From Klebsiella pneumoniae (GTDB taxonomy: Bacteria; Pseudomonadota; Gammaproteobacteria; Pseudomonadales; UBA5518), in contig CAMAXE010000001.1 in the NCBI GenBank assembly GCA_945862145.1, positions 388,295 through 452,294 on the forward strand: a DNA stretch of 64,000 nt, read 5' to 3'. Made by a program: the position numbers and the translations under genes. Below the pieces are notes generated by a model. It worked only from the letters and a program-made list of their open reading frames with translations, was not told where the DNA came from and searched no databases. Shown here one piece after another: positions 28,509 through 31,145 of the stretch; position 1 is the stretch's first letter; every line of letters starts with the position of its first letter.

Positions 28509-31145
28509 ATGAGCATGCCAATGGGTCAGCCAATCGCGACAGTCGCAACCGTTACAGGAACAGCATTCGCCAGGGATGCGGAGGGCAATATACGCCCTCT
28601 CAAGGAGGGGGACGTCCTGAACGAAGGCGAGGTAGTCGTCACCGATGCCGGCGCCAGGGTCGAGCTGACGTTCTTTGATGGTGGCGATCTGGCGATCGCA
28701 GAAAACCGCACTGTCGCTGTCTCGCCCGAGGCAAATCCGCAGACGGAGACCGATCCCGGTGAGGCTGCTGTATCCCAGAAAACTGTCGAAGATGTGCTTA
28801 AGGCAATCGCTGAAGGAAGGGATATCGACACAAATCTCGAGGCAACCGCCGCGGGCCTTGGTGGCGGAGGTGGTGGTGATGCGCACGGCTTTGTGCGGGT
28901 GCTGCGTCTGGCCGAAGAGACTACTCCACCGGGCTTCCGGTTCCCGCCGCCCGAGCGCAGCGTAGCCCCGATCCCGCTTGGTGGGGCGCCGGCGACTGAT
29001 ATCACAACGCCCACGACGCCGACCACGCCGACGACGCCGACCACACCGACGACGCCGACCACACCGACCACACCGACGACGCCAACGACGCCGACCACAC
29101 CGACGACGCCGACCACACCGACGACGCCAACGACGCCGACTACTCCGACGACGCCAACGACGCCGACCACACCGACGACGCCAACGACGCCAACGACGCC
29201 GACTACTCCGACGACGCCGACGACGCCGACGACGCCGACCACACCGACGACGCCGACGACGCCGACCACACCGACGACGCCGACTACTCCGACTACTCCG
29301 ACCACACCGACGACGCCAACGACGCCGACGACGCCGACTACTCCGACGACGCCCACGACGCCGACGACGCCCACGACGCCCACGACGCCGACGACGCCGA
29401 CGACGCCGACGACGCCGACCACTTACCCACCCACGGTGGTCGCTACCAGTCACACGGTGTACGAATCTGGCCTTCCAGGCGGCAGCAGCGTAGGCACGGC
29501 GGCGATCACGGTTAACGGCAGCATCACCGTCGGAGATCCGGACGGCCTCGCGGATATCCGCGGGCTCACGATCGCCGGGATTGATTTCCCCATTGGCGCC
29601 GGAGGTCTTGCGGAGCTGCTGGCAGCCTCGGTCGACACAGGCTTTGGTACGTTGACGATCACCTCTGTCGCCGGCGGGGTGCTTGGATTCAGTTATGTCT
29701 TGAACGGTCCTGTCGACAACAGCACGGAACCAGGCGCCGCGAATCTCGCCTACATGGAGACCATAGCTGTCACGGTTCGCGATGGCCTGAGCAGCGCCAG
29801 TGCTGACATCGAGATCACCATCGCCGACTCGATCCCCGAGATCACGGCGGTAGAAAACGCCTCCGTAGGGAACGAGGTCGGGCTCTCTGTCACCGGGCAT
29901 ATCTCTGCCTCGGCTCCCGACATGATCGCAAGCTTTGATCTGTCTCCGAGCCTCGCGAACGCGCCGGCGGGTCTCAGCTACGCGCTGCAGACGGACGGCT
30001 CACTGCTTGCCACGAACGCTGCCGGCGACGCCGTGTTCAGCCTCTCGATAAACAACAATGGTGACTACACGTTCACTGCCCTGCGCACCGAGCAGACCCT
30101 GACCGCCAGCGCGCCGAACTTCAACACCCTGCAGATCTCGGCCGGCTCGCCGATGGTCTCAGCCTCAACCGGGCTCTTCGCGAGCTATGACAGCGCCACC
30201 GGGGCGGGTATAGGAACGGCAGTCACGTCCGTGGTCTTCTCATCGGTGGATGGGATGCTCAACCCGTCACGCGATGGCTTGGGCATCGGCAATAACCTGA
30301 TCGACAACCCGCGCACAGCGCCGGCAGAGGTGCTGTCGATGCAGTTTGCAGATCGGTTATCAAATGCCTCCCTCACGATCGGGAACCTGAAGACATCGGA
30401 GACGCTGACCTGGAAGGTTTATCTTGGTGGGACACTCGTTGATTCCGGTGAAATCGGCCAGACCTACGTGGATGTCAACGGCAACCAATCGAGCATTGCA
30501 GGCAGCGAGAGTCCGACCTATTTGTTCGATCTCGGGAAGAACGGGTTGAACGAAGACGCACTGTTCGATCGCATTGAAATCTCGGCCGGCGAGGGTACGT
30601 CCTACAAGTTCATAGACCTGGGCGTCGAAAAACCGGTATCTGTGTCAATGGAGGCATTGCAACTGGAGTTCAGCGTGTCGGCTCAGGATGGCGACGGAGA
30701 CACTTCCTCGATCGTCAATTTCACGGTCAATATGGGCGGCAGCGACAGCTTGGTGAGTGACACCGCCGGCGATACCGTGCTAACCGGAGGCGAAGGGGCC
30801 GATGTGTTCCTGTGGACGCTGGCGGAAAGCGGCGCGCGTGACACTGTCACGGACTTCAATATGGCAGCGCCTTCCAGCGGGGGAGACATACTGAACATCC
30901 AGGACCTGCTGCCGCCAGAGAGCGTCGGGCACCTGGAGAGCTATCTTCGCTTCGAACAGTCCGGTGACGGCGGAACACTGCTCAAGATCAGCCAAGAGGG
31001 CGCGTTCACAGGCGATGCGGGCCATGATGCGAGTGTCAGCTACCAGAGCATCGACCTGCAGCACGTGGACCTCAACAGCCTGGGTGGTAGCCAGCAGCAG
31101 ATCATCGACAACCTGCTCGCCAGCGGTAAACTCATCACCGGCTAA
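28509..31145 (+). CDS. LapA-like type I-secreted surface adhesin (N-terminal retention module, (TTP)46 stalk, beta-rich passenger, VC_A0849-type C-terminal T1SS signal)
   Basis: 878-aa ORF. The N-terminus IATVATVTGTAFARDAEGNIRPLKEGDVLNEGEVVVTDAGARVELTFFDGGDLAI matches the LapA-type retention module, followed by a TAAG dialanine site. The C-terminus TGGEGADVFLW...DTVTDFNMAAPSSGGDILNIQDLL...YLRFEQSGDGGTLLKISQEG matches the T1SS C-terminal target domain seen in LapA/VC_A0849-type substrates. Confidence 0.9.
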   Translation: MSMPMGQPIATVATVTGTAFARDAEGNIRPLKEGDVLNEGEVVVTDAGARVELTFFDGGDLAIAENRTVAVSPEANPQTETDPGEAAVSQKTVEDVLKAIAEGRDIDTNLEATAAGLGGGGGGDAHGFVRVLRLAEETTPPGFRFPPPERSVAPIPLGGAPATDITTPTTPTTPTTPTTPTTPTTPTTPTTPTTPTTPTTPTTPTTPTTPTTPTTPTTPTTPTTPTTPTTPTTPTTPTTPTTPTTPTTPTTPTTPTTPTTPTTPTTPTTPTTPTTPTTPTTPTTPTTPTTPTTPTTPTTPTTPTTYPPTVVATSHTVYESGLPGGSSVGTAAITVNGSITVGDPDGLADIRGLTIAGIDFPIGAGGLAELLAASVDTGFGTLTITSVAGGVLGFSYVLNGPVDNSTEPGAANLAYMETIAVTVRDGLSSASADIEITIADSIPEITAVENASVGNEVGLSVTGHISASAPDMIASFDLSPSLANAPAGLSYALQTDGSLLATNAAGDAVFSLSINNNGDYTFTALRTEQTLTASAPNFNTLQISAGSPMVSASTGLFASYDSATGAGIGTAVTSVVFSSVDGMLNPSRDGLGIGNNLIDNPRTAPAEVLSMQFADRLSNASLTIGNLKTSETLTWKVYLGGTLVDSGEIGQTYVDVNGNQSSIAGSESPTYLFDLGKNGLNEDALFDRIEISAGEGTSYKFIDLGVEKPVSVSMEALQLEFSVSAQDGDGDTSSIVNFTVNMGGSDSLVSDTAGDTVLTGGEGADVFLWTLAESGARDTVTDFNMAAPSSGGDILNIQDLLPPESVGHLESYLRFEQSGDGGTLLKISQEGAFTGDAGHDASVSYQSIDLQHVDLNSLGGSQQQIIDNLLASGKLITG
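28845..28856 (+). other. predicted LapG cleavage site (T-A-A-G, residues 113-116)
   Basis: LEATAAGLGGGGGGD lies directly after the retention module. P. fluorescens LapA is cut by LapG at a TAAG dialanine motif at a comparable distance from its N-terminus. Confidence 0.55.
29004..29417 (+). repeat. 46 tandem 9-bp units encoding a perfect (Thr-Thr-Pro)46 tract inside the adhesin gene
   Basis: I counted the units codon by codon: ACGACGCCG x21, ACCACACCG x9, ACGACGCCA x6, ACTACTCCG x5, ACGACGCCC x3, plus ACAACGCCC and ACCACGCCG once each. The protein level is invariant. The tract is followed by ACC ACT TAC (TTY). Confidence 0.98.

Follow-up and report, generated by a model that had tools for sequence, protein, structure and literature searches.

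A minisatellite-encoded Thr-Thr-Pro tract in a Lap-type adhesin of an uncultured freshwater gammaproteobacterium and the predicted sulfotransferase-glycosyltransferase fusion beside it

The adhesin gene and its locus

The window, the whole 64,000-nucleotide stretch of DNA analysed here (assembly GCA_945862145.1, contig CAMAXE010000001.1, positions 388,295 to 452,294), carries the gene of a Lap-type adhesin of a type I secretion system (T1SS), in which a run of Thr-Thr-Pro (TTP) tripeptides stands between the N-terminal retention module and the remainder of the protein. Divergent from it lies the gene of an enzyme in which a predicted sulfotransferase, tetratricopeptide repeats (TPR) and a glycosyltransferase (GT)-like domain are joined. 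The features of the locus are collected in Table 1; homologous loci or contigs are given L-numbers and homologous proteins P-numbers. The host of the tract is an uncultured freshwater gammaproteobacterium. Related contigs come from freshwater-lake metagenomes or metagenome-assembled genomes and are labelled uncultured Gammaproteobacteria or Pseudomonadales.

Table 1 Features of the adhesin locus in the window (aa, residues of the encoded protein; AF2, AlphaFold2; E, expectation value)
Feature	Position	Strand	Residues	Basis
LapB-type T1SS ABC transporter, degenerate C39-like domain	21894..24062	+		TIGR03375, E 6e-282, above cut-off; Pfam
LapC-type HlyD periplasmic adaptor	24059..25483	+		TIGR01843, E 1e-113, above cut-off
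LuxR/GerE-family regulator	25480..26097	+		PF00196
Predicted sulfotransferase-TPR-GT-A enzyme, divergent from adhesin	26138..28360	-	740 aa	Pfam, AF2, Foldseek
Enzyme, GT-A-like domain (~220 aa)	26141-26803	-	aa ~520-740	AF2 and Foldseek
Enzyme, TPR	26903-27310	-	aa ~351-486	Pfam
Enzyme, sulfotransferase domain (Sulfotransfer_1/_3)	27503-28300	-	aa 21-286	PF13469, E 3e-31; PF00685, E 3e-26
Lap-type T1SS adhesin	28509..31145	+	878 aa	retention_LapA and T1SS_VCA0849 NCBIfam matches in one frame
Adhesin, N-terminal retention module	28533..28946	+	aa 9-146	NF033682, E 7.5e-36
Adhesin, TAAG dialanine motif, candidate LapG cleavage site	28845..28856	+	aa 113-116	motif match
Adhesin, poly-Gly linker (Gly6)	28860..28877	+	aa 118-123	follows TAAG
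Adhesin, (TTP)x46 tract, 9-bp coding minisatellite	29004..29417	+	aa 166-303	translation, Tandem Repeats Finder, unit statistics
Adhesin, passenger region, beta-rich	29418..30839	+	aa 304-777	low-confidence AF2 model; 64-78% identical orthologues P0002-P0006
Adhesin, C-terminal T1SS secretion domain, VCA0849 subclass	30840..31136	+	aa 778-876	TIGR03661, E 3e-14
LapD cyclic di-GMP receptor	31562..33544	-		PF16448, GGDEF, EAL; NF045673, E 1e-134, below curated cut-off
LapG periplasmic cysteine protease	33544..34374	-		PF06035; NF045674, E 2e-73, below curated cut-off
LapE/TolC-family outer-membrane channel	34335..35963	+		TIGR01844, E 4.5e-78, above cut-off

Translation of the adhesin gene yields 46 consecutive TTP tripeptides with zero amino-acid deviations, as an earlier note on this DNA had claimed. 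The 138 residues are exclusively Thr (92) and Pro (46), and they form a long tandem Pro/Thr/Ser repeat of the kind by which mucin-like (PTS) domains are recognized. Tandem Repeats Finder reported a single array in the window, at 29007-29419, with a period of 9 and 45.9 copies. The start given by the earlier note (29004) stands; its end at 29423 lies too far downstream, as it takes in ACC ACT, a truncated 47th unit within the sequence TTYPPT. The Tyr of this segment (YPPT, aa 306-309, 29424-29435) follows directly on the tract and is also found in L003 and L009; it is worth noting because the sulfotransferase domain next door has tyrosine sulfotransferases as its closest relatives among solved proteins.

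Seven 9-bp unit types make up the array, instead of the five counted in the earlier note: five are recurrent (ACGACGCCG, 21 copies; ACCACACCG, 9; ACGACGCCA, 6; ACTACTCCG, 5; ACGACGCCC, 3), and the two singletons, ACAACGCCC and ACCACGCCG, sit at its 5' end. Differences between units are confined to unit positions 3, 6 and 9 and are synonymous throughout. The two Thr codons of a unit co-vary, with 30 ACG-ACG, 9 ACC-ACA and 5 ACT-ACT pairs and 2 exceptions; their mutual information of 1.07 bits was reached in none of 100,000 permutations (p<=1e-5), and independent codons would have given 14.6 unit types where 7 were observed (p=5e-5). The codon covariation proposed in the earlier note is thereby confirmed, and its significance bears out the view that entire 9-bp units were duplicated and reshuffled as the array grew. 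The forward frame of the tract is certain because the retention module on its 5' side and the T1SS C-terminal signal on its 3' side share it. This homology at both ends excludes a gene in an overlapping frame or on the opposite strand, and the GC-rich repeat accounts for the minus-strand open reading frames (ORFs) at 28461-29900 and 28526-29422, which are its by-products.

The two ends of the adhesin score far above the family cut-offs (NF033682, 123.5 bits against a curated cut-off of 50; TIGR03661, 54 bits against 17.6). The TAAG motif, which is kept in L003 and L018, and the Gly6 linker have their counterparts in LapA-like proteins, in which the dialanine motif cut by LapG was defined as [T/A/P]AA[G/V] and a poly-Gly region follows the site (bioRxiv 10.1101/198937). 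Within the passenger, a partial match to the T1SS-143-type repeat (TIGR03660) covers aa 698-749. The AF2 model of this region, built on a 6-sequence alignment, is all-beta with a few beta-sandwich-like segments; at a predicted local distance difference test (pLDDT) score of 54.6, it was too poor for a fold search and was not used for one. A Pfam scan of the adhesin returned no family at all, including no RTX repeats (PF00353). Tandem Ig-like extenders were not found either, as there were no Big-family Pfam matches and no direct repeats besides the 9-bp array. The usual Ig-like extender is thus missing, as had been proposed, and the low-confidence model contains few beta-sandwich-like domains. 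The designation "RTX adhesin" of Lap type used in the earlier note holds for the Lap type, given the complete Lap locus, and is loose as regards "RTX", no RTX nonapeptide repeats having been detected. A promoter and terminator scan of 28200-31700 gave results at chance level.

By its family matches, the adhesin locus is a complete Lap system (lapB-lapC / lapD-lapG-lapE). The GerE-family regulator holds the same position in L003, L011 and L098. Between the adhesin gene and lapD lies a small conserved ORF of ~109 aa (31166-31534, +, likely start near 31205), which also occurs in L001, L003, L004, L005 and the P0004 contig and has neither a Pfam match nor an obvious signal peptide. A diguanylate cyclase (DGCcoil and GGDEF; annotated from the identical region of L001) is encoded immediately downstream of the Lap locus, at 37525-39189 (+), and could be a source of cyclic di-GMP for LapD.

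Variation of the tract among strains and orthologues

Contigs from other lake samples that carry other alleles of the tract are ~99.5-100% identical to the window in the flanks, and still the tract structures differ: L001 has 2 mismatches to the window flanks in 11.7 kb, and L002 has 32 in 6.5 kb. All these alleles come from metagenome assemblies, in which assembler error is possible. The window has 46 units, L011 has 25 in a contig that spans the tract, and L001 has at least 53 in a contig that ends inside it. Additional synonymous unit types are present in L001, and the unit orders of L012, L015 and L002 differ from that of the window; every unit encodes TTP. Length change without frameshift, as postulated in the earlier note, is therefore seen in alleles with near-identical flanks that differ in unit number and order.

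The tract is either a hypervariable variable number tandem repeat or has been scrambled by short-read assemblers. In the second case, the 46-unit arrangement would be a collapsed, expanded or chimeric product of assembly and the alleles would reflect assembler behaviour. Nearly all independent related contigs stop inside the repeat, where L003 has a 100-N scaffold gap; the 25-unit allele of L011, which has the same ends as that of the window, may have arisen by collapse, and in L013 there is an irregularity of 3 nt close to the end of the contig. The tract itself is no artefact, as in at least seven independent contigs from several samples the two unique flanks are bordered by 9-bp units that code for TTP. 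Collapse alone cannot yield the distinct 3'-proximal unit orders that the window and L001 on the one hand and L002 on the other present beside the same unique flank, which favours real polymorphism. The 53 or more units of L001 lie in one contig, and complete long tracts exist elsewhere, such as the one of ~192 units in L033. An origin of the observed arrangements in assembly is considered unlikely.

The six closest homologues of the adhesin are 64-100% identical to it. In the 64-78% identical orthologues, the same site is occupied by (TSP)n with some GSP units, by at least 48 copies of TSPTTV, by (TVP)n or by (PTP/PSP)n; the site of the tract is conserved among orthologues and the repeat sequence is not. 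Each of these arrays is perfect at the peptide level and changes synonymously at the DNA level, the 48 TSPTTV copies being encoded by 27 distinct DNA units. As the arrays stay perfect while all DNA variation is synonymous, selection acts on the exact peptide.

A search with the retention module among 1.84e9 representative sequences gave 1467 relatives, the best 149 of which were checked for Pro/Thr tracts. A Pro/Thr-rich tract after the module was present in about 3 of the 149 (P0129, P0253 and P0122), by which count a Pro/Thr tract in this place is a rare variant among Lap adhesins, in line with the expectation that such an extender is unusual. In P0129, a short retention-module adhesin (915 aa), the module is followed by a (PPTIE/PPTTQ/PPTTE)n tract of ~130 aa; the protein looks like an independent case of a Lap-type adhesin with a Pro/Thr stalk.

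Public gene calls at the repeat either start beyond the tract or are spurious ORFs, read from the other strand or in a different frame, and for each of the six closest homologues (P0001-P0006) the annotated start lies immediately behind the tract. The full-length architecture of the adhesin is missing from protein databases because the gene calls miss the tract.

The three-domain enzyme and its association with Thr-Pro tracts

In the enzyme gene next to the adhesin, the motifs TEKSGTTW and RDGRDIAVS are invariant in 13 homologues, and RDTDSR is likewise invariant. We take the first two to be the 5'-PSB-like (5'-phosphosulfate) and 3'-PB-like (3'-phosphate) binding motifs of the sulfotransferase domain. 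The closest sequences in the PDB, matching over the whole domain with an E of 1e-14, are those of the protein tyrosine sulfotransferases (TPST) TPST2 and TPST1. The N-terminal part of the enzyme is accordingly a predicted TPST-like sulfotransferase of the type that uses 3'-phosphoadenosine 5'-phosphosulfate (PAPS).

The C-terminal domain is strongly conserved and was modelled by AF2 with a pLDDT of 85.7 and a predicted template modelling (TM) score of 0.87. In a Foldseek search, glycogenin came first (E 6.6e-7, probability 1.00, TM score 0.49, identity 12-16%) among 126 PDB matches at E<=1e-3, which include glycogenin/GT8 enzymes, Skp1 alpha-GalT, ABO GTs and GpgS at TM scores of ~0.45-0.5. 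Neither a Pfam match (E<=10, including GT8) nor a PDB sequence match (E<=10) was obtained for this domain. The sequence R614-D615-x-D617-S-R is invariant in it and is a candidate for a DxD metal/nucleotide-sugar motif. The model points to a previously unannotated domain with a GT-A fold of the glycogenin/GT8 type. Glycogenin and the Skp1 GalT act on protein-linked acceptors.

In the marine homologue of L033, the same three modules are permuted (TPR-GT-sulfotransferase), and their retention in another order argues that they work together. No signal peptide and no transmembrane segment were found in the enzyme, which is therefore probably located in the cytoplasm, where PAPS and UDP-sugars are available. 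The "predicted modifying enzyme" of the earlier note is not solely a sulfotransferase but a fusion of one with TPR and GT-A parts.

In seven of the eight informative lineages, the neighbour of the enzyme is a T1SS-type protein that carries a Thr-Pro tract, and these proteins are of three unrelated carrier types. Retention-module adhesins are the carriers in the species of the window (TTP) and in L018/L098 (TVP), and L100/L101 have a Lap locus with an unrelated passenger and TTP at the contig break. The proteins of L016 and L017 have an unrelated N-terminus with the motifs DDLTVLS and DPVPPI.QPLP, followed by TTP, and that of L033 shares these N-terminal motifs. In L029, an RTX protein carries (PTVPTT)x5, which is degenerate in its relative L024. 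The contigs L102-L106 hold merely the acidic C-terminus of the gene next to that of the enzyme. As a control, loci matching only the TPR and GT part were inspected, and none of 69 (726 kb) carries such a tract (Fisher p=3e-9, with lineages that are not fully independent). The link between tract and neighbouring enzyme drawn in the earlier note is thus supported by recurrence. A strict specificity of the enzyme for TTP is excluded, since TVP and PTVPTT tracts also adjoin it.

The fragments L016:1-930 (-), L017:10455-10976 (+), L102:1-309 and L104:3-545 suggest, at the level of sequence, a second carrier family beside the enzyme. In its N-termini, the DDLTVLS and QPLP motifs precede (TTP)n, and its C-termini consist of acidic repeats such as (DDRDSK)n that end in ...KIEW. 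The loci also encode a double ABC transporter of ~1300 aa, an HlyD protein and a GT2 enzyme, and L017 an APS kinase as well. In the marine metagenome contig Ga0315336_1000923 (L033:12147-16172), a 1341-aa protein has an acidic N-terminus with the motifs IFDDLTVLS and DPVPFVDQPLPDAEI, ~192 TTP units, then ~250 nearly uninterrupted Asp in three blocks, and an acidic C-terminus that ends in DVDW. It is flanked by the TPR-GT-sulfotransferase, a 906-aa TPR-APH protein, a fusion of a Stf0-type sulfotransferase with GT2, and a GT25-like gene.

In L003, whose adhesin locus is 78% identical, an 814-aa APH/kinase-like protein (PF01636; L003:1278-3722, -) is encoded between the GerE regulator and the adhesin. 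Kinship with the TPR-APH protein of L033 or with the enzyme of the window is excluded, as no similarity was found. Ser-Pro repeats might have their own, different modifier in this protein.

Function of the tract and relation to known systems

On balance, we favour the reading that the tract is a hypervariable, in-frame (TTP)n stalk of a Lap adhesin, probably modified before export by the neighbouring enzyme. The tract sits as a low-complexity stretch immediately beyond the LapG-cleavable retention module in a short Lap-type adhesin, and its DNA would expand, contract and shuffle through slippage or unequal recombination. The ~50 residues that lead from the TAAG site to the tract may suffice to thread the LapE channel; they are comparable to the LapA segment that was modelled inside a TolC-like pore (bioRxiv 10.1101/198937), by which likeness the tract should begin where the chain exits LapE. 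Outside the cell, its 138 residues could form an extended, polyproline-II-like spacer of up to ~43 nm (at 0.31 nm per residue), a stalk that would hold the ~575-aa beta-rich passenger off the outer membrane in place of tandem Ig-like extenders. The TPR module would bind the array, and the enzyme would add sugar and/or sulfate to it in the cytoplasm before export. The product may be an O-glycosylated and/or sulfated, polyanionic, stiff and protease-resistant mucin-like rod. That the tract forms a polyproline-II rod, serves as an extender and is O-modified is in each case inferred.

Several points weigh against this reading. The unit count and order of the window come from an assembly, and other assemblies of essentially the same strain give 25 or at least 53. 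That the tract is modified is deduced from its genomic association with a candidate enzyme, the GT-A assignment of which is a moderate structural match (TM score 0.49, 12-16% identity) with no sequence match. Ten large ORFs in the window were checked for PAPS synthesis, and none is a gene of this kind; the homologous locus L017 does carry an APS kinase. L023 carries the enzyme without a tract-bearing neighbour, and the L003 adhesin with its (TSP)n tract has the unrelated APH-domain protein in the slot of the enzyme, from which it follows that the enzyme is not obligatory for a Thr/Ser/Pro stalk and that its slot is not a constant part of the architecture in all orthologues. Finally, the literature searched yields no precedent for a T1SS that exports a chain with dense glycosylation or sulfation.

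The exceptions L003 and L023 would also fit a tract that stays unmodified and is a passive spacer, in the form of a disordered linker stiffened by Pro, with an enzyme that acts on exopolysaccharide, lipopolysaccharide, another protein or the Tyr behind the tract. Pro/Thr-rich linkers work unmodified in many proteins, and the nearest solved sulfotransferases act on Tyr, not Thr, with Tyr 306 following the tract in the window and its equivalents in L003 and L009. That Tyr is absent from L006, L007 and the DDLT-type carriers, which argues against it as the target. Adjacency of enzyme and tract in seven of eight lineages and with three unrelated carriers speaks for a functional link, as does the variation between loci in the order of domains (L033) and of genes (L099-101); Pfam and NCBIfam searches of the locus found no polysaccharide export or polymerase genes, and a perfect peptide with purely synonymous DNA change exceeds the needs of a passive linker. 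A passive spacer is for these reasons regarded as rather doubtful.

It is improbable that the tract serves mainly for variation at the population level (escape from phages or grazers, tuning of reach), or that it threads or lubricates the passage through LapE, instead of being a static extender. Allelic diversity within one lake population is extensive and the repeat unit differs among close relatives, both of which would suit a role in variation; the changes are in length and in synonymous order, so that the epitope would stay chemically constant. For threading speaks the position of the tract near the retention module. The ~50 residues in front of the tract already match the pore segment, which probably places the tract outside the channel, and with 138 to ~580 residues it is far above the need of a TolC-like channel, the length of which is ~14 nm.

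Beyond the modified stalk favoured here, the wider association may tentatively be taken as a hitherto undescribed system of protein modification in Gram-negative bacteria, in which a cytoplasmic fusion of a TPST-like sulfotransferase with TPR and a novel GT-A domain would recognise exact Thr-x-Pro tripeptide arrays of T1SS substrates and turn them into sulfated and/or glycosylated polyanionic rods. The substrates would be Lap adhesins and the "DDLT...(TTP)n...acidic repeat...IEW" family, and the products would be bacterial mucins exported by T1SS, a joint proposal to which we give somewhat less than even credence.

The closest known relative of the locus is the Pseudomonas fluorescens Lap system, with which it shares the retention module, the TAAG motif, the poly-Gly linker, the C-terminal T1SS signal, the LapB-type ABC transporter, the HlyD adaptor, the TolC-like channel, LapD and LapG. 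Unlike LapA, the adhesin has just 878 aa, lacks RTX nonapeptide and tandem Ig-like repeats and has the 138-aa TTP tract after its retention module; in comparison with the P. fluorescens locus, the enzyme gene is inserted between regulator and adhesin. The published algorithm for LapA-like proteins demanded RTX motifs and more than 1000 aa (bioRxiv 10.1101/198937), so the adhesin, being shorter and without RTX repeats, would escape it.

Low-complexity stalks of hydroxy amino acids with GT genes nearby are also known from the serine-rich repeat glycoproteins of Gram-positive cocci (GspB, Fap1, PsrP), the cytoplasmic glycosylation of which precedes export via a dedicated accessory Sec system (PMC5578698, PMC7661464). 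The system described here differs in its Gram-negative T1SS, in Thr-Pro tripeptides instead of SASx, in a single fusion enzyme that adds a sulfotransferase and TPR, and in its non-homologous carriers. The staphylococcal SD-repeat proteins (ClfA, Sdr) resemble it in a length-variable, short-repeat stalk beside GT genes, and glycosylation by SdgA and SdgB shields that stalk from proteolysis (PMC3794999); their repeat chemistry differs, their export and anchoring are Sec- and sortase-dependent, and they have no sulfotransferase. In fungal adhesins (Epa1, Als, Flo) and the PTS domains of animal mucins, unstable minisatellites encode Pro/Thr/Ser repeats the copy number of which sets the projection of the binding domain, and dense O-glycosylation, to which sulfate is added in mucins, makes the rod stiffer (PMC7199969, PMC6308950, PMC6817596). 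There is no homology to these proteins, which are glycosylated in the eukaryotic secretory pathway, whereas modification would be cytoplasmic and compatible with T1SS in the present case.

The enzyme may also be compared with two proteins of other systems. Its C-terminal domain has glycogenin (GT8) as its best structural match, with a conserved DxD-like motif, 12-16% identity and no Pfam GT8 match. RaxST of Xanthomonas oryzae is a TPST-like PAPS sulfotransferase encoded beside a T1SS (the ABC transporter and membrane-fusion protein RaxAB) and sulfates the secreted substrate RaxX in the cytoplasm. It acts on a single Tyr of a small peptide without a repeat tract and has no TPR or GT domain. To our knowledge, there is essentially no known case in bacteria of protein sulfation that is Ser/Thr-linked or glycan-linked. 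The literature searched (full texts, with few subscription journals) held no description of Thr-Pro tracts in Lap or T1SS adhesins, of bacterial TTP repeats, or of an enzyme of the sulfotransferase-TPR-GT type that has T1SS substrates.

Among Lap adhesins, a known kind of protein, a stalk encoded by a minisatellite is a novelty, and the architecture is under-counted in databases because short-read metagenomes systematically break or mis-call such genes, as the annotated starts of the closest homologues illustrate. If the favoured reading is true, the tract would provide a testable substrate for a widespread, uncharacterised class of TPR-sulfotransferases, a new GT-A domain family would be defined, and the question would arise of how a heavily modified chain crosses the ABC/TolC conduit. 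Lap adhesins would then gain reach through a cheap and evolvable low-complexity rod and not through dozens of Ig-like domains, with minisatellite instability tuning its length, and enzyme-decorated, mucin-like stalks would extend from fungi, animals and Gram-positive cocci to the T1SS of Gram-negative bacteria.

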